A stretch of DNA of 50,021 nt from a virus. Its lineage: Duplodnaviria > Caudoviricetes. Positions within the stretch are counted from its first letter, which is position 1; every line of letters begins with the position of its first letter. This document shows positions 2,181 through 50,021 of the stretch, piece by piece. The position numbers were made by a program, and so were the translations under genes. The notes under the pieces were generated by a model. The model was not told where the DNA came from. It did not search any database and saw nothing but the letters and a program-made list of their open reading frames with translations. The stretch spans positions 1 through 50,021 of the IMG/VR virus record IMGVR_UViG_3300033153_006092. One strand, given 5' to 3'.

Positions 2181-3308
2181 ATGATACTGTTATTGGCTAT
2201 TTCTCTTATTGCATTTGGTATACTACTAAGTGTAGCTACCGCATATGCAGATATAACACAAGGCCAAAAAGATGAACTTCTAGCCACCACTTTACAGCTA
2301 CAAGAAACTGAGTTAATTAAACATACCTATTTGGAAAATCCTATATATGTTTTCTTTTCTAATAGTAGATATACTAAAAAAGTAAAAGGTGGTCATGAAA
2401 TTCGGTTTCCGGTTGTACTTGATAAATCGGACACTTTTGATTGGTTTGGTGTTGGAAGTACATTTAATCCACAACCTAAAAAGATATTAGGTTGGTCACA
2501 TACGGAATTAAAACAGGGTGCAGGTCATGTTACTTTTGAAGATGTAGAATTGTGGCAAGCCAGTGGCCCTGGTAATTTTGTAGGAATGGTAGAAGCAAAG
2601 ACTGAGGAACTTGAACAGTCTATAGGCGAGTCATTGAATTTGACTGCTTGGGGAGATGGAACAGAGGATGGTGGATTAGCACCTACTGGTTTGACTGGTC
2701 ATATTCCTAATCCGCCTACAAGTGGTACATATATGGGTCATGATTTGTCTACAGAAAATTGGGGTAGATGTTGGTATAATGATAATGAGACTATTGGCCC
2801 ACATTCATTGACAAGCCCAACTGGTAATGCCCCGCATACAGAAGGTGCAATAGGAGATATAAGTGATAGATATCCACTTATAATAGATTCTCTTAACCTT
2901 ATGTATGCTTCATGTGTTAGTAATAGTGATAATAAAAGTGATATTTTTCATATTACCGATTTGCAGACACAATTGTGGTATAAACAAATTCCATTTAGAT
3001 GCCCCGGTTTTGATATAGGTGTAACAGAGGGGCCATTTAATATTGGAATTGAAACTGCTCATTTTATGGGTTCGCCAATTATTCCAGATACAGTTGATAA
3101 TGGTGCAATAGAAGGCGAGTGGCGTATGGTTAATATGCGGTATTACAATATGTATATTGACACTGACCATTTCTTCAAATGGGTTGGGCCACGTTCTCCT
3201 TATAATGCTCTAAGAACTTCAAAGTATCTGGTTGTGCGTTTCCAATGGGTTAACAAATTCCCAAGAAAGCAAGGGCTTTTAGTCGGAATAGCTACTTGGC
3301 AGGCTTAA
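2181..3308 (+). CDS. Major capsid protein (HK97-type) with a 23-aa N-terminal hydrophobic leader
   Basis: ELLATTL...NP...KKVKGGHEIRFPV, LNLTAWGDGT...PTGL, FMGSPIIPD, RKQGLL resemble podoviral MCP motifs; synteny scaffold-MCP-decoration; AGGAG RBS before the ATG. Confidence 0.8.
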   Translation: MILLLAISLIAFGILLSVATAYADITQGQKDELLATTLQLQETELIKHTYLENPIYVFFSNSRYTKKVKGGHEIRFPVVLDKSDTFDWFGVGSTFNPQPKKILGWSHTELKQGAGHVTFEDVELWQASGPGNFVGMVEAKTEELEQSIGESLNLTAWGDGTEDGGLAPTGLTGHIPNPPTSGTYMGHDLSTENWGRCWYNDNETIGPHSLTSPTGNAPHTEGAIGDISDRYPLIIDSLNLMYASCVSNSDNKSDIFHITDLQTQLWYKQIPFRCPGFDIGVTEGPFNIGIETAHFMGSPIIPDTVDNGAIEGEWRMVNMRYYNMYIDTDHFFKWVGPRSPYNALRTSKYLVVRFQWVNKFPRKQGLLVGIATWQA

Positions 3309-4851: not shown

Positions 4852-5204
4852 TGATATTGACAATAGGAAAACAAAGAGCGGCATCTGTATTAACTAACAA
4901 TTCGTATATTACTCATCTTGCGGTAGGTGATGATGATACGGATGAGACAGCTGGTGATTTAGCTCTCGGTAATGAGATATACCGAGTTGCTTTAACTACG
5001 GTATCACAGAATGATCAGGTATGTTGGGGCGTTGCTACTATAACAGCTAGTGATATTGGTGCTGGTTCTTATACTATTAAAGAGTTCGGTTTTGTCGATG
5101 CGGCAAGTGGAGGCCATTTTCAATGCAGAGTGGTGTTAGATACAGGAATAACTATAACAGGCGCTCAGAAACTAATAATAGTATGGGGCGAAGTGTTTCC
5201 GTAA
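4851..5204 (+). CDS. Virion structural protein, tail-collar/fibre-attachment-like domain
   Basis: ITHLAVGD...LALGNEIYR...TIKEFGFVDAASGG pattern. Confidence 0.55.
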   Translation: MILTIGKQRAASVLTNNSYITHLAVGDDDTDETAGDLALGNEIYRVALTTVSQNDQVCWGVATITASDIGAGSYTIKEFGFVDAASGGHFQCRVVLDTGITITGAQKLIIVWGEVFP

Positions 5205-6172: not shown

Positions 6173-6852
6173 GATTTTTTAGGCGGTCACAGGTAAAACA
6201 AAGTTATATATCTTATGTTTCAGAGCGGTCTGTTAGAGGTTTACATGATACAATTTTAAGAACTGAAGAACCAAAATATTGTTTAGAAATAGGTTTGAAT
6301 GGTAAAAGTGAAGATTGTATTACATTAGATCTTGGTTCAAAAGCTGATATAGTTGGAGATATTAGAGGTGCTTTTGCACAACATGGTGGATATAAACCTG
6401 TTGAAGAAATTGAAAAATTGCCATTAGATTATTTTCATCTTATTAAAGCGGTGCATGTTATTGAGCATATAGAATGGTTGTATCAACAAGTAATGTTTGA
6501 CTGGTTTTTTGATTTAATTGCACCAGGCCACTATCTTTATGTAGATACGCCAAACTTAGATTATATTATTGAGATATATAATAATGGTATTCAGTCCATG
6601 AATAAAGGTAACAAGTTAGAATATCCAATGTCTGACCATCCAGATTTTACAAAAGATAGGTATATAGAGAATTTTACACCATGGGTTAATTATAAGATAT
6701 TTAGTGGTTGTAGTCCTGGTGATTATCATCATACCTGTTTGAATAGTATTTGGTTGGGTAATCTTCTACATGCCGCTGGTTTTGAAAATATAAAAATACA
6801 TAGTGGTAGGTCATTGATTGCTATTGCTATGCGACCGAAGGAGAGCTTGTAA
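6169..6852 (+). CDS. Class I SAM-dependent methyltransferase-like protein
   Basis: CLEIG, ADIVGDI, HVIEHI, LIAPGHYLYVDTPNL. Confidence 0.75.
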   Translation: MRFFRRSQVKQSYISYVSERSVRGLHDTILRTEEPKYCLEIGLNGKSEDCITLDLGSKADIVGDIRGAFAQHGGYKPVEEIEKLPLDYFHLIKAVHVIEHIEWLYQQVMFDWFFDLIAPGHYLYVDTPNLDYIIEIYNNGIQSMNKGNKLEYPMSDHPDFTKDRYIENFTPWVNYKIFSGCSPGDYHHTCLNSIWLGNLLHAAGFENIKIHSGRSLIAIAMRPKESL

Positions 6853-8285: not shown

Positions 8286-9328
8286 TATTAGGATTTTTAG
8301 GGTATGGAGAAGATAGTTTTTTCCATAGCGGAACAAATAAATGGATAGAGCCTAATGCTAACGATAGGTTTCCTAATATAGGTGTGTGGGGGCCGAATTC
8401 AAATGCTGTATATAGAAGGTTATATCCTAATGATCCATTTGTTATGTTAGTTACTAAAGACCCTAATCTTGAATTTGCTAATAGGTGTGATTTTATTATA
8501 TTTCAATCTTCTACAGGGCAAGACCCGTTATTCTTAGAACATTGCGATAAAATTGAAGTGCCTATAATTCATTGGCAACATGGTGGTTATGAAAATATGG
8601 TACAATTATCGTATGGTGCTGTTTTACGAAATAAGCAATGTATGGATAAATGTGATTTGGTTGTCACTACAGACCATAGATATGTGTCTCTTTATAAAAC
8701 GTGGACTAAAACACCTGTTATATATTGCCCGCTGCCTTATCCTGTTAATTATGCACTTAAAACTTTATCTAAAAGTGTAGATATTGAATATGATTTATTT
8801 ATACCGTATGGTATAAATATGACATATAATAATAGAAGAAATGGTTATGTCATGTCAGCGGTTGCTGATAAAATTATTACAAATGTAGAAAGTTTTAATA
8901 ATTGTTTAATGATAGATAGTGGTAATACTGATAAGTCGTGCGATTTTTTGCAACAAATGGGGTTCCAAAATATTACTATAATTGACCGTAAAAAATATAG
9001 TGAATATCTATTATCATTGAGTAGATGCAGGGTAATTATAAATTTAGATAGACACATGGCTTGTGGTAAGGTTGCTATTGATGCTGCTTTGGCTCGTAAA
9101 CCTGTTATAATGTCTAACCGAATTCCTTATGCCCAATATATATATAGTGGTATAAAATTACAAGACCCATTTGATGTTGATGCGGCATTGGCAACCGCAG
9201 AATTGATTCAACGAGGTGGGTGGGAACAGTCTTGGATAGATATGGCTTTTAACAGAGCACAGGATTTTAGTATGGAGAATGTTGGTAAGATATTGGAGGA
9301 AGCAGTTGGAAATCTTAAATTTAATTAG
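8282..9328 (+). CDS. GT-B fold glycosyltransferase (GT4-like)
   Basis: CGKVAIDAALARKPVIMS resembles the GT4 E-x7-E region; C-terminal AQDFSMENVG helix. Confidence 0.65.
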   Translation: MILGFLGYGEDSFFHSGTNKWIEPNANDRFPNIGVWGPNSNAVYRRLYPNDPFVMLVTKDPNLEFANRCDFIIFQSSTGQDPLFLEHCDKIEVPIIHWQHGGYENMVQLSYGAVLRNKQCMDKCDLVVTTDHRYVSLYKTWTKTPVIYCPLPYPVNYALKTLSKSVDIEYDLFIPYGINMTYNNRRNGYVMSAVADKIITNVESFNNCLMIDSGNTDKSCDFLQQMGFQNITIIDRKKYSEYLLSLSRCRVIINLDRHMACGKVAIDAALARKPVIMSNRIPYAQYIYSGIKLQDPFDVDAALATAELIQRGGWEQSWIDMAFNRAQDFSMENVGKILEEAVGNLKFN

Positions 9329-10076
9329 TGCAGGTGAATGGTTAAATGGGAAACGTAAGGCTACCTATGAATCTTATATACAATGGTCAAAAAATAATGA
9401 TAGTGTAATTCAAGTATCATATCCAAGAAGCGGCAGACATTGGATTGAATCAATAATAAAGTGGAATTTATTAGGCAAAGATGGTTGTGCGGATATACAA
9501 AACTTTGACCCAAATAATTCTAAACATTATTATTTTACTCATGTAAAAAATTGGCCGGCATTTGATGCTAATGGTAAATATGTTTATTTGATACGTGACC
9601 CAAGAGATGTATTTGTGTCCTTTATGTATTACCGAACTTGTATAAAACAGTCTTTGACAGTAGAACAATCTTTCAATGATTATGATTTTCTTGGTAAAGA
9701 GGTTAAGTCGTGGAAAAATATGTTACAGGTTTTTATTGAAACTGATTGTATTATTATTCAGTATGAAAGGATGTGTTTGTACCCTAAAATAGAATTGAAT
9801 AGGATAGCCAGATTTATTGGTGTAGATATGGTGGATAATATTGACTGCCGTGATAATGGTCATTTTATTTATTATAATCCAGATAAACCTTGTCAACCAA
9901 TAAAGAAACCTTTTGAGTCAAATATAGAGAGATATAATATCAGATGTTTGACATGGCAAAAAAATCCAAGATTTACCAAAAAACATTTTGATATTATTTG
10001 GGGTGCATTGAAAGATATAATACCATACTTTGGTTATTTAGAAAACGGTCATTCGCTAAATTTATTAGAAAGGTAA
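9306..10076 (+). CDS. PAPS-dependent sulfotransferase
   Basis: 5'-PSB loop SYPRSGRHW, 3'-PB motif LIRDPRDVFVS, IQYERM...IARFIG. TTG start inferred from the GGAGG RBS. Confidence 0.8.
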   Translation: MEILNLISAGEWLNGKRKATYESYIQWSKNNDSVIQVSYPRSGRHWIESIIKWNLLGKDGCADIQNFDPNNSKHYYFTHVKNWPAFDANGKYVYLIRDPRDVFVSFMYYRTCIKQSLTVEQSFNDYDFLGKEVKSWKNMLQVFIETDCIIIQYERMCLYPKIELNRIARFIGVDMVDNIDCRDNGHFIYYNPDKPCQPIKKPFESNIERYNIRCLTWQKNPRFTKKHFDIIWGALKDIIPYFGYLENGHSLNLLER

Positions 10077-10081
10077 AACTA

Positions 10082-10810
10082 GTGAGATTTTCTGTTATTA
10101 CTATTATTGCTAACCTAGATAAATATAGAAAATATAATTTTGATAAATGTGTTACACAATGGTTAAATCAAGACTTTGATGATTATGAATTTATATGCGT
10201 AGAAATGTCATATAAAAAAGATTTTTATATTCATGGTAATTATAATTACTATAGTGTGATTGGTGACGAATTCAAACGTGGTTGGTTGTTGAATGTTGGT
10301 GCAAAGAAATCTAAAGGCGATATATTAGTATTTGCTGATTCTGATATATTGGTACGAAAAGATTATTTAACTAAAGTTGACAATTGGTTTAAAATTGGTA
10401 TGAAAAGCGCAATAGGATTAAACCAATTGATTAGATTAAATCAAGATGGTTCAATTAAAACTTCTTGTATTGCTTCTATAAAAGGGGCGGCTGGCGGTAT
10501 AAATATATTTGATTCTCATTTCTTTTTTAAGTTATTTGGTGGTTGGAATGAAACGTTTACTTTTGGTGACGGTAATGATAATGATGGGATGTTCAGGGCA
10601 GAAGCCGCAGGTGGTCATGTAAAAATATTTCCAAGTCCAGTTATTCATCTTTGGCATCCTGGTAAAAAACATGGTATTAAAAATATGGAATTGTGGTTAT
10701 ATACACAACGGTATCCCGAAATAGTTACAGAAAAGATTTTGGAATTGGGTATTGGAAAAGACAAACCTACGGTTTATAATATTGAGGAATTGAAAAGGTT
10801 AACTAAATGA
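10082..10810 (+). CDS. GT-A fold glycosyltransferase (GT2 with GT7-like C-terminus)
   Basis: FSVIT, NVGAKKSKGDILVFADSD (DxD), GGWNETF...DND, HLWH. Confidence 0.85.
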   Translation: MRFSVITIIANLDKYRKYNFDKCVTQWLNQDFDDYEFICVEMSYKKDFYIHGNYNYYSVIGDEFKRGWLLNVGAKKSKGDILVFADSDILVRKDYLTKVDNWFKIGMKSAIGLNQLIRLNQDGSIKTSCIASIKGAAGGINIFDSHFFFKLFGGWNETFTFGDGNDNDGMFRAEAAGGHVKIFPSPVIHLWHPGKKHGIKNMELWLYTQRYPEIVTEKILELGIGKDKPTVYNIEELKRLTK

Positions 10811-11370
10811 ATATACAAGGATGGATGAGTCAATCAGAACTTATGTGGTTACAAACTATGTCAAAATCAATGCCATCTAATTCTTTAATAGTAGAAGTTG
10901 GAACATGGAAAGGCAGAAGTACGGCCGCTATATGCAATGCCTTAAATAAAAAGAGCACTTTTGTTACTATTGATACATGGTTAGGTAATAGTAATTTATT
11001 TATATATCAAAATTCATCAGCATCTTTAGTTACTGATATATTTTTAGAATTTTTAGATAATATGAAATTACTGGGTCATAATTTTAAGTGGTATAAAAAA
11101 AATACTTTTGGTTTATTTTATCTAAGAATGAAATCAGTTGAGGCCGCAAAATTATTCGATGATAAAAGTATTGATTGGTTGTTTTTAGATGGTAATCATA
11201 CAGAGGCAGATAAAGATTGTGATGCTTGGGGAGTAAAGATAAAGAGCGGCGGAGTTATATCCGGCCACGATTTTACAAATGACTTTATTAAATTGACTAC
11301 AGATGTGAAACAAAGGTACCCAAATTTATCAGTGGCAACGAATACAGGTATATGGTATTCAACAATTTAA
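10807..11370 (+). CDS. SAM-dependent methyltransferase (Methyltransf_24-like)
   Basis: VEVGTWKGRST, IDTW, LFLDGNH, GGVISGHDF. Confidence 0.85.
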   Translation: MNIQGWMSQSELMWLQTMSKSMPSNSLIVEVGTWKGRSTAAICNALNKKSTFVTIDTWLGNSNLFIYQNSSASLVTDIFLEFLDNMKLLGHNFKWYKKNTFGLFYLRMKSVEAAKLFDDKSIDWLFLDGNHTEADKDCDAWGVKIKSGGVISGHDFTNDFIKLTTDVKQRYPNLSVATNTGIWYSTI

Positions 11371-11383
11371 GGAAAGAAAATAA

Positions 11384-12376
11384 ATGAAAGATAATGAATA
11401 TTCATTATACAAATCTTTGCATCATCAATATGCGCTTAAAAATAAAATACCAGTATTATGCTATTTTTTTATAACGCATAAATGCAATAATAAATGTCCA
11501 ACTTGTTCTTCTCGATATGGTCAAAAGTTTGATGAAAATATAGAAATGCCTATTGAAGATGCGTTACCTTGTTTAATAAAATTGAAAGAGTTAGGACTAA
11601 AAGCTATTTCATTATCTGGCGGTGAGCCGTTGATGCATTCTAATTTTGGTGGTTTTGTAAGAGCCATAATTGGTATAGGATTAGATATTGCGGTTATAAC
11701 AAATGGTAGATTATTATCTAAGAAATATTTAGATGTTTTGAAATGGCTATCTTGGATTAGAGTTTCCATAAATGCAGTAAACCCAGATATATATAAATTG
11801 GTTCATGGTGCAAAAATGCCAGAGAGGTATTTTCTTAATCTAAAAGAGACTATTCCTAAGCTTAGAAAATACGGTGTAACTACTGGTGCTAGTTTTTTAA
11901 TAAATAAAAATAATATACAAGATATGCTTGATGCTGTAATAATGGCAAAAGAAATTGGTTTTGAAACATTTAGATTTAATTATACAAGAGATAGAGATGG
12001 TCTTATCTTTTACAAAGATGAAGATCTTTACAAGATAAAAGATAATTTATCTATCGCTATAAATTATAGTTGTGATAGTTTTAGAGTGCTTCCTTTGTCT
12101 GATAGGTTATTATATAAAATTAGTAAACCGTATACACATTGTTACCAAAGTGATATATCCTTATGTATAACTGCCGATGGCGGTGTATATGCTTGTCCAT
12201 TTTTGGCTAATAATCCACGTGCATTTTATGGTTCGATATATGAAAAATCTATAGATTATATTTGGTTAAACAAAAAAGAAATAGATGTGACTAAATGTCC
12301 TATATGTTGGCAAACAAAGAAGAATGAATTTATGGCATACTTAATGTCTAAACCTACTCATGTTAATTTTGTATAA
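11384..12376 (+). CDS. Radical SAM enzyme with SPASM/twitch domain
   Basis: CNNKCPTC, SGGEPL, ITNG, C-terminal C...DGGVYAC...CPIC. Confidence 0.9.
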   Translation: MKDNEYSLYKSLHHQYALKNKIPVLCYFFITHKCNNKCPTCSSRYGQKFDENIEMPIEDALPCLIKLKELGLKAISLSGGEPLMHSNFGGFVRAIIGIGLDIAVITNGRLLSKKYLDVLKWLSWIRVSINAVNPDIYKLVHGAKMPERYFLNLKETIPKLRKYGVTTGASFLINKNNIQDMLDAVIMAKEIGFETFRFNYTRDRDGLIFYKDEDLYKIKDNLSIAINYSCDSFRVLPLSDRLLYKISKPYTHCYQSDISLCITADGGVYACPFLANNPRAFYGSIYEKSIDYIWLNKKEIDVTKCPICWQTKKNEFMAYLMSKPTHVNFV

Positions 12377-23711: not shown

Positions 23712-23924
23712 CTACCCAACCAAAAGTTCTGGGATCGTTTCTGCCTTCAATTCATCATAATTGCATTTGATGCCTGAAATCTTGGCGTCGTTAGTGCCGT
23801 CATCATACCAGTCAACGCCTTTGTAATATTTACATCTGTTACCTGACTCAATGCAATCACATATATCCTGTATACATTTGTTTTTAGGACACTCGATGGC
23901 TATAATAGCATCCAAAATCTTCAT
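23712..23924 (-). CDS. Small Cys-rich hypothetical protein
   Basis: AAGGAG RBS; six Cys residues. Confidence 0.5.
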   Translation of the reverse strand: MKILDAIIAIECPKNKCIQDICDCIESGNRCKYYKGVDWYDDGTNDAKISGIKCNYDELKAETIPELLVG

Positions 23925-23930
23925 CTTCGT

Positions 23931-24047
23931 TCACGCTCCTTTCTTTTCAATCTTTTTTCGCTTATGTCGCATTTTAGATATAATCCCCCATGCCGTCGCA
24001 ATGCCGAAAAACCCCGCAATAGCAGCCGACAGAATTCTCAATATCAT
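23931..24047 (-). CDS. Small single-TM protein
   Basis: MILRILSAAIAGFFGIATAWG followed by a basic tail; start re-estimated. Confidence 0.45.
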   Translation of the reverse strand: MILRILSAAIAGFFGIATAWGIISKMRHKRKKIEKKGA

Positions 24048-24292
24048 TATAACCACCCCATCAATATAAAAAATAGCCCGGTAACACCTATACCAAATAA
24101 ATACCCTTGTATATCTTTCCAAGCCATATCATGGATATGCAAGTGTTCACGAACCTCATAAAAAACAAAACCTACAGCAAACATGATACTCAATGACGCA
24201 GACCGGGAATGGATTATTACATTGACAATCCCAACCGGGAAATGTAATAAAAACCTTGGCCAATCATGTATGAACCACAATTTCCTTCTCAT
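24047..24292 (-). CDS. Membrane protein downstream of the endolysin (possible holin)
   Basis: Two to three hydrophobic segments. Confidence 0.45.
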   Translation of the reverse strand: MRRKLWFIHDWPRFLLHFPVGIVNVIIHSRSASLSIMFAVGFVFYEVREHLHIHDMAWKDIQGYLFGIGVTGLFFILMGWL

Positions 24293-24321
24293 TTTTACTC
24301 ATTCTCCCCCTTTCCAAATAT

Positions 24322-24353
24322 CTTTCGCAATGGCAAGACTCCCACTGCGAAAG
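24322..24353 (-). terminator. Hairpin downstream of the endolysin
   Basis: CTTTCGCAATGG...CCACTGCGAAAG inverted repeat. Confidence 0.45.
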
Positions 24354-24408
24354 GTAGTGTTCTTCACTCGGTTTGTAAATAAGAAATCCGGTTCACCTAA
24401 TTCTCCTT

Positions 24409-24762
24409 TCAATATATCCATATAACCCGTCCGATCTTGTGGCCGTCCCCCGCATGAATAAAATTTTCCCCTATCCCGATACGAATAAAACCTGCCTTAA
24501 GTAATGCAGTAATAATTTTATACCGAGAACGAGAATCTGTGCAGGCAATATCAGCCGCCAAACCGAATAAATGTTCACTATTCTCTGAACCACTGACTTC
24601 TTTGTTATGTTCGACACAACGATAACCAGATGTAATTACGAAAGGTATGTCTGCAATATCTCTGGCTTTTTGTAATTTACCAACAAAAACTCTTTGCATC
24701 TTTACTTTACCACAACAAGGGCACTTGAATTCTTCTTCGTTAAAGTTTACAGATAACCTCAT
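24409..24762 (-). CDS. Peptidase M15 (M15_3) endolysin
   Basis: NF...EFKCPCCG, ITSGYRC..HN..VSG...SEHLFGLAADI, FIH. Confidence 0.9.
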   Translation of the reverse strand: MRLSVNFNEEEFKCPCCGKVKMQRVFVGKLQKARDIADIPFVITSGYRCVEHNKEVSGSENSEHLFGLAADIACTDSRSRYKIITALLKAGFIRIGIGENFIHAGDGHKIGRVIWIY

Positions 24763-36682: not shown

Positions 36683-36711
36683 ATTATAGCACAGATAGAA
36701 AAATATGTCAA
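36683..36711 (-). promoter_or_regulatory. Leftward sigma70 promoter 1
   Basis: TTGACA-17 nt-TATAAT with extended TG. Confidence 0.9.
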
Positions 36712-37558: not shown

Positions 37559-37587
37559 TTGACATTTCACACATTTTATGTTATAAT
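37559..37587 (+). promoter_or_regulatory. Rightward sigma70 promoter for the packaging/structural arm
   Basis: TTGACA-17 nt-TATAAT with extended TG. Confidence 0.9.
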
Positions 37588-39540: not shown

Positions 39541-41220
39541 GTGTTAAATTTATTAGGAAAACCTAAAAGACTTAGAGAATTATCTCAAAAAGATCAATTA
39601 GAATATTGGTCACATAAATTTGAGAACGCCAAACATTTCCGTGAGCCCATGGAAAACAAATGGAATAAATGGGCTAGGATGATTGATGATGAAATATGGG
39701 GCAATAATGATAGAATAGCGCAAGTCAACGAATTAAAATCAGTTATATTTACAATCCTACCGTTTATAATTTTAGAACCTCCAGTAATAGAAATCAGAGC
39801 ATATAATATAAGAGATGTAGAATCAGCGGCTATATGGGAGCGAGTTGCTACATATATAGATCGTCAGTATGATTTATTTTCGGAGTTTATTTGGTGTGTC
39901 TATTCAGCTTTACTATATGGTAGTGGAATTGCCAAGTTGAGTTATTGGGATGATATACTGATTGAGCGACCCACTTGGGGTAGTGGTATATCTGAACCTT
40001 TCGGGATGAATCGAGCGGCATACGCCATTAATAATAATATTACTGAAATATATCCTGATGTCAGGGCGGAACGATGGGAGACACAACGGTATTTGATACA
40101 AACCAGTTTTTTACATATAGATGATATATTAGATAATCCGGGTTATAATAAGAAAGCTAAGAGTAAAGTTAAGCCTACTTATGCCGCCGAGAAGATGGAT
40201 TTCAGTTTACCTCATGTTGAGCAAGAGAGTGAATATGTAAAGGTTTATGAGATACATGATTTTCGTAATGGCAAAGTTATGATTATGTCGGATAATAATG
40301 ATACATGGCTTTATAATGATATTGAACCTTATGGAATAGTTCCTTATGAACATCTTGCATTTATAAACAGGCCTAAATCGGTATGGGGAGATTCGATAAG
40401 TCAAACTATAGAAGGTCATGTTAAAGCTATTAGTGAAAATTTACAGTTTATGAATGATGCTGTGGGTAAAGAGGGAATATTAAAAGTATTGTTGAAACTT
40501 GGGGAATGGCAGGAAACTGATATAGCCAAATTAAATACTAACAAAGATGAAATAATACCTATAATATCAGATAATCTTGAGAATTCTATAAAGGTAGTTG
40601 ATTACAGTACTGCCAGAAAAGATTTTATATTTGAACAACACATGAATACTTTAAGGGAGATAATACGTTCGGTGACAGGCGTAACGCAGCAGGAACGTGG
40701 CGTACATGAAGCTGGTGTTGAAACTAAGTTTGAGGCTAGTATGCTTAAAACGGCATCTGATGTAAGAAATCAGATGCGTAAACGGATGTTTTCAAGGTTT
40801 GCTTCACGGACTATATCTAAACTTCTTTATCTTGTTTCAAGGGAATATCCTAGCGCAAAGATTGCACAGATGGCTGGTCTTGATGAATCATGGGGGTATA
40901 ATATTCAAAGACCATTTGATGCTACTAAATTTGAAGTAGATTATGGTATGACAGCGGCAAATTCAAGAAGTGAACGGTTACAAAATTTAATGTTATTTAA
41001 GAGTTTAGTTGGGGATTATGCTAATCCGGTAATAATAGGAAAGATGGCTGCTGAGGCTATGAATTTTGATTTTGTTTCCGAGATGATGGTATTAGGTTCT
41101 ATGAGTGGTGGCGGTGGAGGAATTCCTGCTGGAGCTGGCGGGGCCGCCGCCGGCGTACTTAATTCAAGGTTATCTCCTAATCAACCTCAACCTGCACAAG
41201 ATATACCAATGGGGATGTAA
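39541..41220 (+). CDS. Portal protein
   Basis: Follows TerL; ALLYGSGIAK, VYEIHD, SVTGV...RG...TKFEA motifs of P22-like portals. Confidence 0.8.
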   Translation: MLNLLGKPKRLRELSQKDQLEYWSHKFENAKHFREPMENKWNKWARMIDDEIWGNNDRIAQVNELKSVIFTILPFIILEPPVIEIRAYNIRDVESAAIWERVATYIDRQYDLFSEFIWCVYSALLYGSGIAKLSYWDDILIERPTWGSGISEPFGMNRAAYAINNNITEIYPDVRAERWETQRYLIQTSFLHIDDILDNPGYNKKAKSKVKPTYAAEKMDFSLPHVEQESEYVKVYEIHDFRNGKVMIMSDNNDTWLYNDIEPYGIVPYEHLAFINRPKSVWGDSISQTIEGHVKAISENLQFMNDAVGKEGILKVLLKLGEWQETDIAKLNTNKDEIIPIISDNLENSIKVVDYSTARKDFIFEQHMNTLREIIRSVTGVTQQERGVHEAGVETKFEASMLKTASDVRNQMRKRMFSRFASRTISKLLYLVSREYPSAKIAQMAGLDESWGYNIQRPFDATKFEVDYGMTAANSRSERLQNLMLFKSLVGDYANPVIIGKMAAEAMNFDFVSEMMVLGSMSGGGGGIPAGAGGAAAGVLNSRLSPNQPQPAQDIPMGM

Positions 41221-41221
41221 A

Positions 41222-41611
41222 ATGCCTGTATATAGTTATAGATGTAATAAATGTGGTACCAAAATAGATGATTATAGAGAAATGAAAGATCGGAATTGGT
41301 TGACATTATGTACTAGATGTAAAAAAGGTATTTTAGAAAGAGATATGTCAAATGAGCGACCTACCTTATTTGATGATATTGCACCTTATTTTGATTTCTC
41401 TATTGGTGAATATATAAGCGGACGTAGAGATAAGGCAACTAAATATAGAAATGCTGGTATGACTCCTATTGCTGGGCATCATGGTGGAGATACTGTTATT
41501 CCTGAGAAACGCCTATATGGGGATGAACAATACTATGATGAAGTTATTAAGGGCAAACCAAGAACTGATAAAGAAAAGATGATAGATGACCACCTAGAGA
41601 TAGGAGTATAA
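41222..41611 (+). CDS. FmdB-like zinc-ribbon protein
   Basis: MPVYSYRCNKCG...CTRC. Confidence 0.75.
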   Translation: MPVYSYRCNKCGTKIDDYREMKDRNWLTLCTRCKKGILERDMSNERPTLFDDIAPYFDFSIGEYISGRRDKATKYRNAGMTPIAGHHGGDTVIPEKRLYGDEQYYDEVIKGKPRTDKEKMIDDHLEIGV

Positions 41612-41613
41612 AA

Positions 41614-42147
41614 ATGACGGTCTTTATAAATTGGTTTGACAAACTATTGAGTATGATATTAGTAATGTTTTCTAGCCTTGCGACTACTTTTGTTTATGAT
41701 GCAGACGGCGAACATAGTAATATCAGAGTTGCATATACTGATCCATGTGGCGGGGCATTTACTTTGTCAGCAGGTTCTAAAAATGGCCCGCATGGCTGGA
41801 TAGATTTGAGAAAATGTGGAAAACCTTATGTTGACTGGGTATTAACTACTTATGTTAGTTCTGGTGTAAGGGATGTTGCAGTAAGTATCGATTATGGGCA
41901 AAGGCTCGGCAATGATATGATAATTACTATAACTCAGAAGCAACGAAGTACAGATGCGCCGCTTGATTATGGCCCTAAGCGTGGATATATGAGAATGATG
42001 TTAAATAGACAATATGGTTCTTATGCAAGAATTAGAGAGGTTCAGAATGATGGCGATTGTCTTGTTGCAATACAGTCGCTTTCGCCTTCTACTATGAAAC
42101 CGATTAAATCTATAGGTACTATTGATAATAATGTAGAGGTGATATAA
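41614..42147 (+). CDS. Putative virion beta-sandwich protein with hydrophobic leader
   Basis: LLSMILVMFSSLA leader; beta-rich body. Confidence 0.5.
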   Translation: MTVFINWFDKLLSMILVMFSSLATTFVYDADGEHSNIRVAYTDPCGGAFTLSAGSKNGPHGWIDLRKCGKPYVDWVLTTYVSSGVRDVAVSIDYGQRLGNDMIITITQKQRSTDAPLDYGPKRGYMRMMLNRQYGSYARIREVQNDGDCLVAIQSLSPSTMKPIKSIGTIDNNVEVI

Positions 42148-42617
42148 TGAAAAGGTTAGCAGTTATTATAATACTTCTATTATGTGTAACATTTGGTGTA
42201 GACTCCCAAACTACATATAGAAAGAATTTTCCTGATAGAGGTATAGCCATTACGGGTTATGCCAACCTTAGAACTGCGGCTGTATTAACTACTTCTTATG
42301 TTAATACATCGGCAGTTAAATTTGACCAATATAAGGAACTTTGTTTACTATTTGATATAGTTCAAGGCGGGTTAACATCGTTTGAATATAAGATTTGGAT
42401 TAGCAAAGATGGTAATAAGTGGTATCAGGAGGCTACTGAATCAGTTGCCTCTGGTGTTATTACTGATGCGCCATGTTATTATACTTGTGCTTTATCTAGT
42501 GATGTGGCATATTATAAAGTTATTCCATTTAATGGCAGGTGGATCAAGTTACAGGTTAAAGGTACTGGCATTGTAACAGGGTCAAGTTGTTCGGTACAAT
42601 TGATGGGTTCTTATTAA
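42147..42617 (+). CDS. Signal-peptide beta-sandwich protein, paralog of the protease C-terminal domain
   Basis: MKRLAVIIILLLCVTFGVDS leader; collinear similarity with 44823-45248. Confidence 0.7.
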   Translation: MKRLAVIIILLLCVTFGVDSQTTYRKNFPDRGIAITGYANLRTAAVLTTSYVNTSAVKFDQYKELCLLFDIVQGGLTSFEYKIWISKDGNKWYQEATESVASGVITDAPCYYTCALSSDVAYYKVIPFNGRWIKLQVKGTGIVTGSSCSVQLMGSY

Positions 42618-45248
42618 ATGCGAAAAATCTTATCCTTTATTATAATAGCAATATTATGTGTGTCTGTGTCTGCGGATAAGCCACAGAAGAAGTTTTTTGC
42701 CGAGGATCATATATTAGTAAAATTTAGGAAAACTGCTAATATTGCAAAGATTCATGGAAGAACTAAGGCTAAAAGTATTAAGATTAGAAGAGATATTCAT
42801 CATGTTTCTATTCCTAGGGGTAAAAATGCACAGGTATTAGTGAATCAGTATAAAAATATGCCGGAAGTAGAATATGCCGAATTGGATTATTATGCTTATC
42901 CTGAGCATATACCGAATGATACTAATTTTAATATACAATGGGCATTATCTGGTTCTACTTATGACATAAAGGCTGATGATGCTTGGGATACCACAACTGG
43001 TGATGCGTCTATTATAATTGCAATACTTGATACTGGTATATTAACTACTCACGAAGATATAACTGGTAAGGTTGTAGCCAGTATTAATTATACTGATTCT
43101 ACTTTGACTGATAGTGTAGGCCATGGAACTCACGTAGCAGGTATAACTGCCGCAAATACTAATAATGCCAAAGGAATTGCGGGGGTTGGGTATGATTGTA
43201 AACTTCTAAATGTTAAAGTTATAAATAATGATGGTTTTGGTACATATTCTTGGATTTCTGATGGAATAAAATATGCCGCAGATTATGGTGCTCATGTTAT
43301 AAATTTGAGTCTTTCTGGCAAATATTATTCGTATACCATGGAACAAGCGGTTAATTATGCTTGGAATAAAGGTTGTGTTATTGTAGCCGCCGCAGGAAAT
43401 CAAGCTACTTCTAACAAAAGGTATCCAGCCGCTTTTGCTAATTGTATGTCTGTTGGTGCTGTCGATAGCGATGGAGATATTTGTAGTTGGTCAAATTATG
43501 GTACTTATGTAGATGTATTGGCCCCCGGAGATACTATTCTTTCTACAATAAAGAGTGGTAGTTATAGCACTAAGAGCGGTACATCCATGGCGTGCCCGCA
43601 TGTTTCAGGATTAGCCGGTCTCTTATATTCTATGTCTTATGGTACAAATGAGAGTATAAGAGATAGAATACAAGATACTTCTGACGGGTATGTTTTTAGT
43701 GATTATGGCAGGATAGATGCAGATGCGGCAGTTGCTGGCGCCGTACCAACTTTAAGTTCTATAGTGGTTACGCCAGATGGATATTCGATGCCGGCTACTA
43801 ATACTCAACAGTATACCGCTACTGGTACATATTCTGATAGTTCGACTATGGATATTACTGGTAGTGTTACATGGGCTAGTGCTACTCCTGCTGTTGCTAC
43901 TATTACTGCTGCTGGTTTGGCAACTGGCATTAGTGCTGGCGACTCTATTATATCTGCTACATTAGGTGCGGTTAGTGATAATACAACTTTGACAATTACA
44001 GCGGCTACATTAAGTTCTATAGCTGTTACTCCTGCCGGGTCGACTATTGAGATTGGTTCACAGTTGCAATATACGGCAACTGGCACATATTCAGATGCTA
44101 GTACATCTGATATAACTACCGAAGTTGCGTGGACATCTTCTAATGCTGGTGTTAGTATTGATGCTAATGGATTGGCTACTAGTTTAGATAGTTGTAGTAC
44201 TATAATTACTGCAACATTGGGCGCTAAAAGTGGCAATACGACTTTGACTGTTACTGAGTCGGCGCTGATTTCTATTTCAGTTATACCTAGTTCTATTTCA
44301 ATAGGTGTTACTAATACTAAGCAATTTGTTGCTAAAGGTACATATTCAGATAATAGTAAGGTTATTATAACAGATATAGTTGACTGGTTAAGTTCTTCTA
44401 CTGGCGTGGCAACAATAAATTCCTCTGGCGTTGCTACCGGGGTGGGTGCAGGCAGTACAATAATCTCTGCTAAGTTAGGCGAAGTAACCGGGTATGCCAC
44501 ATTAACAGTATCTGCTTCCGCACCCACTCTTTCCTCAATATCTGTAACTCCGGCTAGTTATACAATATCTATTGGTGCTATTAGAAGCTATACATCTATA
44601 GCCAATTACTCAGATTCTAGTACATTAGATGTTACGGCTAACGCAGTATGGGCTACTTCTAATGCTCTTGTAGCTTCTATATCTGGGCATTTGGCAACTG
44701 GAGTTGCGGATGGCACGGCATATATAACAGCTACTTATGGTGGCAAAACAAGTAATAATGCTTTATTAAGGGTATCAACTAGGTCTATCACTGAAACAGG
44801 TTCACAATCTGCATATCGTTATCAGTTTTCTAAAATTGGTTATCCAATTACAGGTTATACGAATCTTAGGGCTGCTGCTACATTATCAAATCTTTATGTT
44901 GATACAGATATTATAAAATTTGACGAATATAAAAGTATTGGTATATTATTTGATATAACGGCAGGTGGTTTAACTTCTGTGGATTATATAATTTGGACAT
45001 CGTTGGATGGTTATAATTGGTTTCAAGAAGCTGGTGAAGATATTGAATCTGGGGTTATAATAGATATGCCGAGATTCAATTCATTACCTTGTTATTTAGA
45101 TGCAGAATATTATCCGCAAACCGGTGATAGTTTTTCTTATTTTAAGATTGTTCCATATTATGGTAGATATTTGAAATTAACAGTTAAGGGTACTGGAGAT
45201 GTTACTGGTTCTAGCCTATCTGTTCAAGCAATGGGAGCATATCAATGA
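42618..45248 (+). CDS. S8 subtilase (thermitase-like) with signal peptide, prodomain, four Big_2 Ig repeats and C-terminal beta-sandwich
   Basis: AILDTG, GHGTHVAG, AAAGN, SGTSMACPHV; four LSSIxVTP...YTATGTYSD...W repeats. Confidence 0.92.
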   Translation: MRKILSFIIIAILCVSVSADKPQKKFFAEDHILVKFRKTANIAKIHGRTKAKSIKIRRDIHHVSIPRGKNAQVLVNQYKNMPEVEYAELDYYAYPEHIPNDTNFNIQWALSGSTYDIKADDAWDTTTGDASIIIAILDTGILTTHEDITGKVVASINYTDSTLTDSVGHGTHVAGITAANTNNAKGIAGVGYDCKLLNVKVINNDGFGTYSWISDGIKYAADYGAHVINLSLSGKYYSYTMEQAVNYAWNKGCVIVAAAGNQATSNKRYPAAFANCMSVGAVDSDGDICSWSNYGTYVDVLAPGDTILSTIKSGSYSTKSGTSMACPHVSGLAGLLYSMSYGTNESIRDRIQDTSDGYVFSDYGRIDADAAVAGAVPTLSSIVVTPDGYSMPATNTQQYTATGTYSDSSTMDITGSVTWASATPAVATITAAGLATGISAGDSIISATLGAVSDNTTLTITAATLSSIAVTPAGSTIEIGSQLQYTATGTYSDASTSDITTEVAWTSSNAGVSIDANGLATSLDSCSTIITATLGAKSGNTTLTVTESALISISVIPSSISIGVTNTKQFVAKGTYSDNSKVIITDIVDWLSSSTGVATINSSGVATGVGAGSTIISAKLGEVTGYATLTVSASAPTLSSISVTPASYTISIGAIRSYTSIANYSDSSTLDVTANAVWATSNALVASISGHLATGVADGTAYITATYGGKTSNNALLRVSTRSITETGSQSAYRYQFSKIGYPITGYTNLRAAATLSNLYVDTDIIKFDEYKSIGILFDITAGGLTSVDYIIWTSLDGYNWFQEAGEDIESGVIIDMPRFNSLPCYLDAEYYPQTGDSFSYFKIVPYYGRYLKLTVKGTGDVTGSSLSVQAMGAYQ

Positions 45249-47440
45249 AAAAATATTTGTGTTTAATATCTTGTATAATAATAATATTGTGTTATACGGC
45301 TCTGGTTGTTGGTCAGGATAGAGGTTCCAGAAGTCCTAGAGTACCTGACTCTACTACAATAGATGGTGTAGATTCCGGTAGTTTTTTACGCTCTGATCAA
45401 TCAGATGTACATACCTCTGGCGTACTTACTTTGCCGCAGGTAGAAATATCTACATATTGGCGTAGTAAATACCCTTATATAGATGTTACTCATTCAGATT
45501 TTGGTGCAGTTGGCAATGGCGTTGCGGATGATAGAGCTGCTATAGCAGCGGCTGATACTGCCGCTGTTTTGGCAGGCGTTCCATTGTTATTCGCAAATGG
45601 CGATTATAAAATTTCATCGGATATAACCATAGCAAGCGATCTCATCCTTTATCAGGGGGCATTGATAACACCTGATGCCGGTGATACTGTAACGATAAAT
45701 GGGCATATAGATGCTGGCACTTGGTGTATATTTGCGGGTGATGGTTCTATTGCAGGCACTCCCAAGAATGATTTTGTGCGACCAGAATGGTGGGGCGCAG
45801 TGGCTGACGGTTCTACTGATTGCGCTGACGCTTTTGAGAAGGCGATTTTGTTCGCTCATGCGAATAAAGTAGGTGCGGTACAATTATCAGCGGGCGTATA
45901 TTATATTGACAGCGCAAAGACTTTTACAAACGTTAGAGAGGTAACTATACGCGGCACTACTACGAAGCCACAATATACAAGTTCCAGAACGGCAGGTTCT
46001 GCTATAGTATTTAACGGTATTGCCACAGATACGCCAGGATGGAAATTCACAACTTGTAGAGGTTTGGCATTCAAGGATTTTTGGATGTATACCAATGGCA
46101 CAAAGGCGCACTCTGGTATATATCTTGATCAAACGGCAACATCAGTTTTTGACGGCGTAAATATACAGGATTTTACTACAGCGTCAGTGTACATAGATAC
46201 CTCATTTAGTTTAACGTTCCAAAATTGCACATTTTCTTCCAGTGATGCAGGGGTACGTTCTGCTGGTACATGCCAAAATATTACTTTCTTGGGCTGCTCT
46301 TTAATACAAAACACCACCTGTGGAGCCTGGGTGTATGGACAAAATTACACTTTTATTGGTTGTGATTTTGAGGGACAACCGAGAGGAATTGACCAAGAGT
46401 CCTCAGTTGGTAGAGTCGTCAGTAGGGGATGGCTGGTAGAGGGCAATTATTTTGAGGCGATGACTGATAATGCTGTAATGTATTTGGTATTTCATGATTA
46501 TAGTCAATTTGGCCCAGCTTATTTATCTGATTCGGCATACTATATATATTTAAATTCATCCGACCATAATGTTGTAGTAAATTGGAGGGGTGATGTTAAT
46601 ATACAAAGCGCATCGACTGATAATACAATAGTTCATGTCGCTGGCACAGTTACAGATGATGGCGTTGATACTATACAATTAGCTGATATAGACGAGTATT
46701 ATTTACGCAAGGATGGCGCAGTTGCGCTTACAGACCATTGGAAAGCAGGAACGAAGGGCTTACAAATTGCAGGTTTAGGTGTGTCTAAGACAGGTGCAAA
46801 CTACGGCGATGAAGTAGTCTCTAACGGGACTTTTGATAGTGATACTACTGGTTGGACGGCTGTAGTTTGTACGTTGTCAAGCGAGGCAGGCGGACAGAGC
46901 GGCAACTGTTTACAGATACTTAATGCTGCTGGAGGCGGTGGATATGAAGCGCAAGCGAGGCAGGAGATAGCAGTAATTCCATTTTTACGATACAAATTAT
47001 CATTCTATTTCAAAAAAGGCACTGGCTCTTATGGTCGTGTATGGGTGGACAGTACGGAATTTTCACGTAGTCCTACATCCGGTGATTTATATTCTACAGG
47101 TGCACTTTCCGATGTGACATGGACTGAGTATACTGGCGAATTTGTGCCAACAGGTAGTAGTATTTTTCTTATGTTGGAAAGTCATTCGCCTTCAAAAACT
47201 GCTCTATTCGACGAGGTGACTATCAAGCCGATCATAGCTGGCGATCTGGCTGTAGGCAAGGATTTGTATGTGGGTGGCGACTTGACAGTTACTGGCGATT
47301 TTATCACTCCTTATGCCAATGCCGTAACGGTTAGTTCTTCTGGCGCAGATTATACTACTATACAGGCAGCGTTAGACGCCAATGATGCGGGAACGCTGGT
47401 GTTGGTTTATCCGGGTACATACACGGATGACACTATAAAT
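45245..47440 (+). CDS. Tailspike segment 1 (signal peptide, beta-helix 1, CBM-like domain, start of beta-helix 2); frame breaks near 47440, annotated stop at 47671
   Basis: DGVDSGSFLRSD, FGAVGNGVADD, EWWGAVADG, NGTFDSDTTGW, YTTIQAALDA...PGTY. Confidence 0.8.
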
Positions 47441-48925
47441 CGATACTCAGATATGCAATTATGGGGCTTATACGGGCTGTCGGATAGAAAATATCAAGAT
47501 GACCATGACTGGGCCGACTACGGCAAAGACTATTATTACCGGCTCCGGTTCGTTGAGGATGCGTTTTGTGCATCTGGGTCTAGTCTGTGCGACGGATATT
47601 GCAGGGGCGCAACCTTCATGTATCGCAGGGACAGGCGATATAAAGATGCACTTTGGTACATTGGATTATGATAATACAGGGGAGACGGTTGCTGGCATCA
47701 AATCTCCGGTTGTCTTAGGTACAGGGTCAAATGTCGTATTAAATGAAGTTGATATTGATGTAGATACTCAGGGTGATGCTGCGGCCTCCACCACTGCCTA
47801 TGGCATCAGCACCGGAAAGGTTGAGTTTAGCCGGTGTGAAATTAACGTAACTAATATCCCTGAGACGCCGGGGTCGGGATTGGAAGATACCTATACTGTA
47901 GGGATTGCATATATTACCGATAGCGGCGAACTTGAAATTATTGATAACAATGTTCACGTTAATAACGACGGTTCGACAGGCATTGGTATGTATATTGGCG
48001 GAACGGTAAGTGCAAGAGTTGTTGGAGGGCACTTGCACGTTGAATCCACTTCTGGGACGGCTAACAGTTATTATATCGCAGCCGCCGGTGCGACGGTCAT
48101 CTCTCAGATTGCTGACATTATTGCCGCCGATGGCATAAATAACGCAGGCGGTGGTACATATTCTTATGTTCATTCACAATCTAACGCCAATTGGGAAATA
48201 TCGGGTGATCTGGCTGTAGGGAACGACGCTACCATACTGGGACACCTGACGCCGAAAGGCGATAATATCTATAACGTGCAGGGGTTGAGCTATGGAGCAT
48301 TGGGAGATGGCAGCAATGATGATACTGCGGCAATACAGGCGGCGATTGATGACGCTAATACAGCAGGCGGCGGGATAATATTTTTTCCGAAAGGAACGTA
48401 CAAAATCAGTTCTTCGCTCACGCTATATAGCAATATTATTCTGCAAGGCGTTGGCGGCAGTTCTATAATCAGTCTTGCCATTGGCAATGACGCCATAGCA
48501 GCAACCGGAACAGCATCAGGTTCAGGGCTTGCTCTGGCTTCTGACGCTGACGCAAAGCAGTTTGATGTGGTACTGGCTGATGCAAGTTCTCTATCAGCAG
48601 ATGATTGGATTCGGATATACTCAGACGATGCTTTTGACGGTTCAGCAACGCAAACGCAGTCGGAAATTAGGCAGATTGCCAGTATAGCAGGGAATACATT
48701 GACGCTTGCCGAAAGACTTGCCGCTTCTTACACAGTCGTCAACTCTGCAGAAGTTGAATTATTGACAATGGTGGAAAATATTACTGTGAGGAATCTGAAA
48801 TTTCTCGGCGGTGGCGATGGTGAGAATCAGTATGGGATGACATTTACATATTGTCGCAATCTCAAAATCACAAATTGTGATATTACAGATTTTTATAATC
48901 GTGGGATTCAACTCTGGAGTTGTGT
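47439..48925 (+). CDS. Tailspike segment 2 (+1 frame; rest of beta-helix 2 and start of beta-helix 3)
   Basis: Frame open from 47439 (DTQICNYGAYTGCRIENIK...); YGALGDGSNDDTAAIQAAID...FFPKGTY. Confidence 0.75.
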
Positions 48926-50021
48926 GGTCTTGGTTATGGGATCGCAGTGTTAGATTCATCGAGAGATTATATAATTAGCAATAATTATATTGCCAGATGC
49001 AGACACGCGGTAGCCCACGGCGGCAATACTTCTGGTGTGCAGAGAAACGGTATTATCAGTGAGAATAATGTTGTAGGTGGTGCTGTTTCCAATGGCGCTT
49101 TTGATACCCACCACACGGCAGAATTTATTACATATGAAAATAATGTTGTTGATGGGATGGGTCTTGCCGCTCCGTCTGGGAACCATTTAACTTTTATTGG
49201 TAATTTCGTTACGCCGCCGATAGATGAGCCTTGTTTTAGCATCTACACATACGGTCATGATATTGAAATCATTGGCAATTATTTTAATGTAGCATACCGA
49301 GGCGTGAATCTCGGCATATCGGAGGCAAAAAATGTTACCATCCGGGGTAATAAATTTTTTGGGACGGATAAATGTTCAGCTACTACTTATGGAGTCTTTT
49401 TAGGGTATGAATGTTTAGATGTGATAATCGAAGGAAACACTTTCGACGGCATGGATTATGGTATCACGCACTCAAACAATAGTGCAGATGCGGATTCATA
49501 TAACCTCAGTATTGACGCCAATACTTTCAGGAACATCGGGACAACGCCAATTTATGTTAAAGCGGAAGGCGGACAGGACATTTATAATGTTCGGATCACT
49601 AATAACATGATGGAAGTTGCGGCAGGTGAGGCTGGGATTTATGTGTTCGACGACGGGACCCAAAAGGTGGAAGGCCTTTTCATAGACGGGAATTATTCTT
49701 ATGACGGCGGGGTGGGGGTTCGCATCGCTGGAACGAATGTTGATAACTGGCGGGTAGGAGAACATTTCGCTACCGGATGTAGTAGCCATCCAGTCCGTAT
49801 TGGGCCAGATGTAAATACTGGCTCTGCGGGTATTCCGGTGATGGCGACAGCGAGCCTTGACCTTTCAGGAGCGGCGACTGACATTGAGGCGTTTATAGCT
49901 CCTGACAATTGCCAGCTTGTCATGTATGACATTCTATACACTGAGGCAAGTTCCGCAGATGCTGGTGTTGATATTCGTATCGGTCGCTACCAGGATGGCG
50001 TGGCCCTGGATGACGATTATT
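48899..50021 (+). CDS. Tailspike segment 3 (-1 frame; not in the ORF track because it runs off the end; finishes at 274)
   Basis: Stop-free beta-helix repeats GLGYGIAVLDSSRDYIISNNYIARCRHAV...FDTH...IIEGNTF. Confidence 0.8.
49927..50021. repeat. Terminal direct repeat, copy 2
   Basis: Identical to bases 1-95. Confidence 0.95.

Follow-up and report, generated by a model that had tools for sequence, protein, structure and literature searches.

Our analysis provides evidence for a run of three secretion-signal-bearing genes inside the late structural operon of an uncultured, short-tailed phage, IMG/VR record IMGVR_UViG_3300033153_006092 (50,021 bases, analysed as a whole and called "the window" here). 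The three genes encode p156, a small jelly-roll protein, a subtilase-type (S8) protease and a tailspike-like beta-helix depolymerase; they are adjacent, lie in the same operon as the terminase and portal genes, and carry conserved Sec-type leaders, as an initial annotation of this sequence had proposed for the tailspike and its neighbours. The three proteins very probably work outside the cytoplasm. That they form a late-operon cassette of Sec-exported proteins directed at the envelope or its glycans is a reading to which we give about an even chance.

Leaders were called with a home-made, crude heuristic, which requires an apolar run of at least nine residues starting within the first 16 residues and more K/R than D/E ahead of that run; all calls were complemented by inspection. 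Among 55 open reading frames (ORFs) of the window an apolar N-terminal run is present in six, and an excess of K/R ahead of it in only three, namely p156, the S8 protease and the 808-amino-acid (aa) beta-helix protein. Each of these has two K/R and no D/E ahead of the apolar core. Their apolar runs measure 15, 16 and 20 residues and are followed by candidate cuts with small residues at -3 and -1 (VDS/Q, VSA/D and VVG/Q, respectively). The three genes are consecutive, an arrangement whose chance probability on a circle of 55 ORFs is about 55/26235 = 0.002 by our own arithmetic. In a comparison set of 27 phage loci with a leaderless p156-type gene, the same heuristic flags seven of 297 plus-strand ORFs.

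The initial annotation had counted five leaders, adding p177, the product of the gene directly before p156, and the major capsid protein (MCP). Hydrophobic N-ends are indeed real in all five proteins, which are the top five of 50 ORFs when ranked by their best 11-residue N-terminal hydrophobicity (p156 3.76, beta-helix protein 3.46, S8 protease 3.32, MCP 3.12 and p177 2.21; the next ORF reaches 1.82). Only three of them are Sec-type, however. The N-ends of MCP and p177 lack a positive n-region, are charged or amphipathic in many relatives, and belong to another type that is treated separately below, so that the count of five had to be given up. The positions of the four genes of the block, from p177 to the start of the beta-helix gene, agree with those first annotated (Table 1).

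Recurrence of the leaders in relatives, which the initial annotation had named among the ways to check its proposal, was found for all three genes. Leaders are present in seven of eight p156 homologues (the eighth begins within the leader), on the S8 proteases of the related locus L005 and of the p156-family protein P0031, and on the beta-helix proteins of the related genomes G001 and L006. On sequence grounds, the leaders are conserved as a property while their sequences drift, as would be expected of real signal peptides. A scenario without any export, in which the hydrophobic N-ends result from misassigned starts or arise by chance in AT-rich DNA, is highly improbable. It could draw on the fact that the leader calls come from a home-made heuristic only, and that the S8 start is without a match in a scan that found Shine-Dalgarno-like motifs ahead of 38 of the 55 starts. 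Against it stand the recurrence of leaders with differing sequences in the relatives fetched, the tight packing of the block, in which genes abut or overlap by 1-4 nt and leave no room for other starts, and the low background of seven flagged ORFs in 297 from comparable phage loci. Moreover, pre-pro subtilases are secreted as a rule.

Table 1. Features of the block and of its operon, with positions in the window
Feature	Position	Strand	Remarks
Promoter-like site, perfect sigma-70-type (TTGACA-17-TATAAT, with TG)	37559..37587	+	ahead of the packaging/head operon
Portal protein, upstream anchor of the block	39541..41220	+	phrog_1216 E 2.3e-5; SU10_portal 24.5 bits, below the cut-off of 30
Zinc-ribbon protein (FmdB-type)	41222..41611	+	Zn_ribbon_8 36.1 bits, cut-off 34.4
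p177, all-beta protein with N-terminal helix	41614..42147	+	N-end not a conserved export signal
p156, leader plus one jelly-roll domain	42147..42617	+	AF2 pLDDT 70.9; XepA C-domain Z 10.0, YomS Z 9.4
p156 leader, Sec-type (MKRLAVIIILLLCVTFGVDS, probable cut before Q20)	42147..42203	+	heuristic; 7/8 homologues with leaders of other sequence
Pre-pro subtilase (S8 protease)	42618..45248	+	leader, fervidolysin-type prodomain, S8 catalytic domain, four Big_2, C-terminal p156-like jelly roll
S8 leader, Sec-type (MRKILSFIIIAILCVSVSA, predicted cut before DK)	42618..42674	+	heuristic; like leaders on L005 S8 and P0031
S8 C-terminal jelly roll, p156 paralogue	44802..45245	+	S8 residues 729-875 vs p156 residues 20-156: 52% identity, E 9e-46
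Beta-helix, pectate-lyase-type depolymerase, 808-aa ORF	45245..47671	+	G001 homology in this frame ends near 47458
Beta-helix protein leader, Sec-type (MKKYLCLISCIIIILCYTALVVG, predicted cut before QD)	45245..45313	+	heuristic; G001 and L006 counterparts likewise, each followed by an RSP motif
Second beta-helix ORF	47499..48953	+	Pect-lyase_RHGA_epim 66.2 bits, K1-lyase_Rider 32 bits
Third beta-helix ORF	48920..50020	+	Beta_helix 38.6 bits; spans the circle junction, 426 aa in all
Major capsid protein	2181..3308	+	NF033394 capsid_maj_Podo; phrog_9953 E 4.1e-28
MCP N-terminal extension, 23 residues, fully apolar, not Sec-type	2181..2249	+	no K/R ahead

The S8 protein matches Peptidase_S8 (PF00082) with 171 bits (cut-off 21.8) and Fervidolysin_NPro-like with 30.6 bits (21), carries the Ig-like Big_2 domain in four stretches, and its translation shows the motifs DTG, HGTH and GTSMA, which we take to be those of a D-H-S type protease. 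Judged by its domain content, it has the standard build of a secreted pre-pro subtilase. Its C-terminal domain is a paralogue of p156, and the p156 domain thus occurs both as a free protein and as part of the neighbouring enzyme. No type IX sorting domain was matched at the S8 C-end (NCBIfam at E up to 0.1, Pfam at E up to 0.01). The Bacteroidota O-glycosylation sequon D[ST][AILVMT], which bears on the link with the glycan cluster proposed in the initial annotation, is likewise not enriched, with five occurrences in S8 against 5.8 expected, none in p156, and nine against 4.6 expected in the 808-aa protein, a number reached by 13 of 300 shuffles and judged not to be an enrichment.

The AF2 model of p156 is an eight-strand jelly roll (pLDDT 70.9). 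Compared with 48,161 chains, its top two matches are the C-domain of XepA and YomS, followed by the C-terminal jelly roll of the subtilase Tk-SP (Z 9.0-9.1); since Z values of 7-8 are common background for unrelated models in the structural-alignment tool used, only the fold class of p156 is firm. Foldseek gave weak matches only (TM below 0.5 against PDB, at best 0.54 against BFVD), and a profile of 66 p156-family members run against PDB sequences at E up to 10 found neither XepA nor YomS. In that profile search a CBM32 chain (E 0.52) was the second of three non-significant matches, and three of 32 family proteins scanned score 17.8-23.7 bits for F5_F8_type_C, below the cut-off of 28.2; p156 itself has no F5_F8_type_C match. 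These results hint at a putative sugar-binding module.

The p156 family is large: searched with a profile, 1.84 billion representatives yielded 393 relatives at E up to 0.001. Among the best 150 of these, most are 120-145 aa long and without a leader, and about 20 have leaders; the leader of one relative (P0042) is of the lipoprotein type. The same 150 include fusions of the domain to two S8 proteases (P0031 and P0060) and to a leaderless beta-helix-PKD protein (P0066), the jelly roll being C-terminal in P0060 and P0066. A word search for longer fusions scored none; it also missed the window's own S8 protease and is weak evidence. In a tree of 156 p156-domain sequences, 27 carry a leader, and the leader state changes 13 times as the tree is drawn, at least five times on well-supported branches. 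Such repeated gain and loss fits a protein that acts outside the cell by whichever route it gets there.

The third gene of the run encodes a right-handed beta-helix protein. Its 808-aa ORF scores 57.7 bits for Beta_helix (against 25.9) and 41.8 bits for Pect-lyase_RHGA_epim (against 27), and PHROG tail-spike families match it as well. In three related beta-helix proteins, the only parts in common are the leader and the short RSP motif, and a shared particle-binding N-terminal domain is not seen. The distance from leader to helix is 25-55 residues, which leaves no room for the usual particle-binding domain; the proteins might attach through another part.

The block does not end at 47440, where the initial annotation had placed its end. 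That position marks a frame break; the beta-helix ORF itself runs on to 47671. A second beta-helix domain starts at the end of the 808-aa protein, and in tblastn the homology to G001 shifts from frame +2 to frame +3 between 47458 and 47484. The ORF at 47499-48953 is probably the continuation of the 808-aa gene after the frame break, or else a separate, leaderless spike gene. On the simplest reading, all three beta-helix ORFs are one very large gene of about 1,650 aa, twice broken by assembly error or mutation. The frame changes lie at 47430-47500 and at 48920-48953, with ORF overlaps of 172 nt and 34 nt, the latter amid the beta-helix region; they may represent assembly errors, real breaks or programmed shifts. 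The G+C content of positions 46001-50000 is 43-46%, compared with about 36% elsewhere in the genome, which fits a recent exchange of depolymerase modules.

From these data we infer export, leader cleavage and, above all, function. Late in infection, the host Sec machinery would move p156, the S8 protease and the beta-helix protein across the cytoplasmic membrane, signal peptidase I would remove the leaders, and the proteins would fold outside the cytoplasm, with the protease maturing via its prodomain. There, the three proteins might attach to or cleave proteins and polysaccharides on the surface of the infected cell, so that receptor, capsule or matrix would be stripped or masked before and during lysis. 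The likely gains would be easier release, fewer progeny lost on debris, and a block to superinfection. This reading would be favoured by the secreted build of the S8 protease, the jelly roll shared across enzymes, the apparent lack of a conserved particle-binding domain on the beta-helix proteins, the likeness of p156 to XepA and the apparent ease with which leaders are gained and lost.

Export might also stop at the membrane. The leaders could act as uncleaved signal anchors that keep the proteins, inactive or sequestered, at the outer surface of the cytoplasmic membrane until release by holin or lysis. SAR endolysins, whose SAR domains are weakly hydrophobic, Gly/Ala-rich and in this respect unlike the leaders described here, would be the model. 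The apolar cores in the window are long (15-20 residues) and I/L-rich, and some relatives, for example P0035 and P0041, have longer segments resembling transmembrane helices, which would suit such anchors. The small residues at -3 and -1 after each core and the lipobox of P0042, which implies processing, argue the other way, and we regard the anchor scenario as quite unlikely. In the accessible part of PMC6116005, SAR endolysins are described as membrane-tethered, later-released phage enzymes.

A number of observations speak against free, envelope-directed enzymes. Within 41614-47671 there are no promoter sites at 11 or 12 of 12 positions and no strong terminators, so that the block is not set apart as a unit of its own. 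If the host has two membranes, export by Sec alone would end in the periplasm. The remaining observations also bear on an alternative along the lines of the initial annotation's proposal, which we consider possible, if somewhat unlikely: spike, protease and p156 could be virion parts that reach their fold in the periplasm or extracellularly and attach to finished, DNA-filled particles when the cell lyses or later. Attachment would then go through the jelly roll, with p156 as a plain decoration protein and the S8 protein with its Big_2 domains and jelly roll as a Hoc-like version of it.

The genes do lie inside a late structural operon. Apart from them, no leaderless tailspike or fibre could be recognised in the genome, in which proteins of 290, 349 and 594 aa are without matches, and if the ORF at 47499-48953 belongs to the same gene as the 808-aa ORF, the only spike-like protein is the exported one. 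In 12 mapped leaderless loci, obtained in a scan that used a 12-row alignment, the p156-type gene lies 0-2 genes after the capsid gene, with a gene for a roughly 285-aa coiled-coil protein and genes of the tail-fibre type directly behind it; across the 27 leaderless loci, p156 relatives are placed between capsid and tail-fibre-type genes. The p156 gene of the window is placed differently: on the circle it precedes the capsid gene by about 9.9 kb. The leaderless p156-type gene is found with at least four capsid PHROG families, so the p156 family does not track one capsid type, which counts against a particle-binding role, as does the apparent absence of a conserved particle-binding domain from the beta-helix proteins. 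Structural matches of p156 to a capsid (accessory) chain of phage 7-7-1 and to the cement protein of BPP-1 would point to the particle; their Z of 8.2 is within the range common for unrelated models. Dilution at lysis would also make stoichiometric attachment hard.

Leader state and neighbourhood go together in a second lineage. In L036 (5884-10958) and L035, an unrelated lineage with a different capsid family, four genes in a row after the head genes encode products with leaders. The first product is of the p156 type, two others measure 227 aa and 245 aa, the latter with a viral BACON domain, and the fourth measures 876 aa. Small protein and large neighbours thus agree in leader state in two lineages, the clade of the window and L035/L036, which is a small number. 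Set against the few ORFs flagged in the 27 leaderless loci, this coordination is a further point in favour of joint attachment to a virion.

Cultured phages contribute evidence on both sides. In the Cellulophaga phages phi3:1 and phiSM, the genes for gp07, gp08 (407 aa) and the pectate lyase gp09 (1094 aa) lie directly after the portal gene, in a region that is 100% identical between the two. By our heuristic, gp08 and gp09 of phi3:1 (L041:5907-10438) have Sec-type leaders. The GenBank notes of phiSM describe gp07 and gp08 as 'structural protein, experimental MS/MS proteomics', so that co-purification with virions, at the least, is possible for a protein with a leader. The pectate lyase gp09, which has a leader too, is annotated by similarity only and not from MS/MS.

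p177 and the capsid protein have N-ends of a kind distinct from the Sec-type leaders. In p177, one K and one D precede the apolar run, D, K, R and Q occur inside the N-segment of its relatives (e.g. MILVMQYLDTLCSLSKVMLSQLGQIIV), and the G001 copy is not flagged by the heuristic. No family match was found for p177; the best match among PDB sequences has an E of 0.012, atlas scores are below 0.9, and the AF2 model is poor (pLDDT 50).

The start of MCP is well supported by an AGGAG 8 nt upstream of the ATG. NF033394 matches residues 32-370 with 93.7 bits (cut-off 80) and leaves the first 30 or so residues outside the model. Among capsid homologues with their N-end present, 18 of 19 have an extension of 14-26 residues before the conserved DITQSQxDE motif. 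None of these 18 extensions has a K/R in its first five residues, and K/R, where present, come after the apolar run. Ten of the 18 are short and amphipathic, some of them charged (G001: MYRMLLSLVEMLAKSLLSQ), and the others are long and apolar; the capsid proteins of Myxococcus phage Mx9 and of Brucella phages are without an extension. The extension is therefore not a Sec leader, given the missing leading K/R, the amphipathic versions, its absence from the Mx9 and Brucella phages and the start of NF033394 at residue 32. It may serve as a membrane tether, as a propeptide or in contact with the scaffold; a prohead protease was not recognised among the ORFs of the genome. A two-compartment build of the virion would combine both features: the capsid protein would be tethered to the inner side of the cytoplasmic membrane by its apolar or amphipathic N-helix, heads would assemble and fill there, and the Sec-exported spike-depolymerase, protease and p156 would mature outside and dock via the jelly roll only once the envelope opens. 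We consider this unlikely.

Related genomes share parts of the arrangement. G001 is a 50.5-kb IMG/VR contig whose capsid protein is 54% identical to that of the window. Its gene order is portal, zinc ribbon, p181, a leader-bearing p166 and a large leader-bearing beta-helix/LamG protein, and it also encodes an 855-aa LamG protein with a leader. A full S8 protease is absent from G001; a 136-aa leaderless S8 remnant (L001:3817-4227; Peptidase_S8 E 4.7e-8, middle part only) is found where the window has none. L005 encodes p159 and an S8 protease and L006 encodes p169 and a beta-helix protein, all four with leaders, and L007 encodes a leader-bearing p167. The zinc-ribbon gene follows the portal gene in all five related genomes, directly in the window, G001, L005 and L007, and with one 107-aa ORF between in L006; its product has a conserved C-terminal part (GRRDKATKYR...GGD).

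The window ends with a 95-base direct repeat of its start and is therefore a complete circular phage genome of about 49,926 bp. One late operon begins at the sigma-70-type promoter-like site and contains, in this order, a small terminase-like gene, the large terminase gene (phrog_2, E 3e-20), the portal, zinc-ribbon, p177, p156 and S8 protease genes and the three beta-helix ORFs. It continues over the circle junction with a cupin, a scaffold-like protein and MCP; next come methyl-, glycosyl- and sulfotransferase genes clustered with one for a radical-SAM enzyme, followed by those for an SU10-type adaptor and for large tail or ejection proteins. The opposite strand carries replication and lysis genes, and two perfect TTGACA-17-TATAAT sites, at 36683-36711 (-) and 37559-37587 (+), diverge at the switch between the two gene arms. 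The cluster at 5123-12376, between the head and adaptor genes, comprises methyltransferases, glycosyltransferase-like proteins, a sulfotransferase and a radical-SAM/SPASM enzyme; G001 has an ORF block in the corresponding position. The enzymes of the window's cluster might act on virion proteins, on exported proteins or on the host surface. PDB sequences gave no match to the tail proteins of 290, 349 and 594 aa. The lysis region (23712-24762, minus strand) encodes a 117-aa M15 endolysin without a leader or wall-binding domain, followed by overlapping ORFs for membrane proteins of 81 and 63 aa; no spanin, including lipoprotein spanins, was recognised in it.

The host is probably not from the Bacteroidota, although the clues diverge. 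The Shine-Dalgarno-like motifs and the two perfect sigma-70-type promoters argue against such a host. Endolysins of the M15 type that are this short and lack a wall-binding domain are more typical of phages of two-membrane hosts. The predicted cuts just before Gln in p156 (42204) and in the beta-helix protein (45314), seen also in the L005 S8 protease, the G001 855-aa protein and Cellulophaga phage gp08 and gp09, recall the 'Q-rule' of Bacteroidota. The genome contains no tRNA genes, and a capsid alignment against 185,579 species genomes found no prophage or host. Single-protein patterns for the portal and p156 found no close relatives in IMG/VR, and tblastn found no match among cultured phages for the portal, p156 or a leaderless p156-family member. 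Cultured phages are all distant; the capsid proteins of Mx9 and the Brucella phages have 23-29% identity to MCP.

Tailed phages are generally assumed to assemble all components of their virions in the cytoplasm. Those phage proteins known to be exported serve mainly in lysis or exclusion; Sec export as such is established for Lys44 and RI, and XepA is exported as well. In the window, secretion signals are found within a structural operon on a conserved set of tailspike-like enzymes and binding proteins. If these proteins are free enzymes, phages would remodel the host surface from within and before lysis more widely than has been recognised, and many metagenomic 'tailspike' annotations would refer to proteins that do not belong to the virion. 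Should the proteins join the particle instead, some of virion assembly would happen beyond the cytoplasm. The repeated gain and loss of leaders within one family amounts to a natural experiment, in which leader-plus and leader-minus relatives can be compared. New in this study are the jelly roll common to free p156 and to the protease, the number of times leaders were gained or lost, their coordinated presence in neighbouring proteins, the odd N-end of the capsid protein and a host that is probably not from the Bacteroidota.

In the literature searched we found no description of leader-bearing tailspikes or capsid proteins, of a leader-bearing cassette of depolymerase, protease and lectin-like protein in a head operon, or of an apolar N-terminal extension on a capsid protein. 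The individual components nevertheless have counterparts in known systems. Classical podovirus tailspikes of the P22 gp9 type fold in the cytoplasm and have an N-terminal particle-binding domain. They share the right-handed, pectate-lyase-type beta-helix body with the protein of the window, which differs in its Sec leader and in having only those 25-55 residues ahead of the helix. The window's S8 protease resembles Tk-SP of Thermococcus and KP-43 in its secreted pre-pro-S8 build with a C-terminal beta-jelly-roll. In contrast to both, it has four Big_2 domains between the catalytic domain and the jelly roll, and its jelly roll also exists as a free-standing phage family. Cement and decoration proteins (BPP-1 cement protein, phage 7-7-1, KHP40) match the jelly roll at Z 6.8-8.2, which is within the background range, and Hoc-type and cement proteins, unlike p156, are without a leader. 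With an effector, an Ig-like array and a putative C-terminal binding domain, the layout of the S8 protein resembles that of Hoc.

The closest parallel in gene order comes from phiSM and phi3:1, in which, as in the window, the portal is followed in turn by a small structural protein, by a protein with a leader and by a pectate lyase that has one too; the lysis genes, a protease and the capsid gene come after gp07-gp09. Unlike the phage described here, they are contractile-tailed myoviruses; their host, one of the Bacteroidota, is probably of a different phylum, and there is no sequence similarity (blastp E 0.1 or worse). Among prophage proteins, XepA of PBSX (Z 10.0, root-mean-square deviation (rmsd) 3.0 over 96 residues) and YomS of SPbeta (Z 9.4, rmsd 3.8 over 101 residues), both from Bacillus subtilis, resemble p156 in fold at 12-13% identity and with Z only 1-2 units above the background of the tool. 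XepA itself has two domains and forms pentamers, whereas p156 is a single jelly roll. According to the accessible text of PMC6834076, XepA is exported beyond the membrane during phage development and is absent from particles. As far as PMC6116005 describes them in its accessible part, the endolysin Lys44 of phage fOg44 and the antiholin RI of T4 have a genuine signal peptide and are exported by the host Sec system before lysis. The M15 endolysin of the window, unlike Lys44, is without a leader. Lys44 and RI are single lysis effectors or regulators that act on peptidoglycan or holin, whereas the set in the window consists of a protease, a depolymerase and a lectin-like protein encoded in a head/packaging operon.

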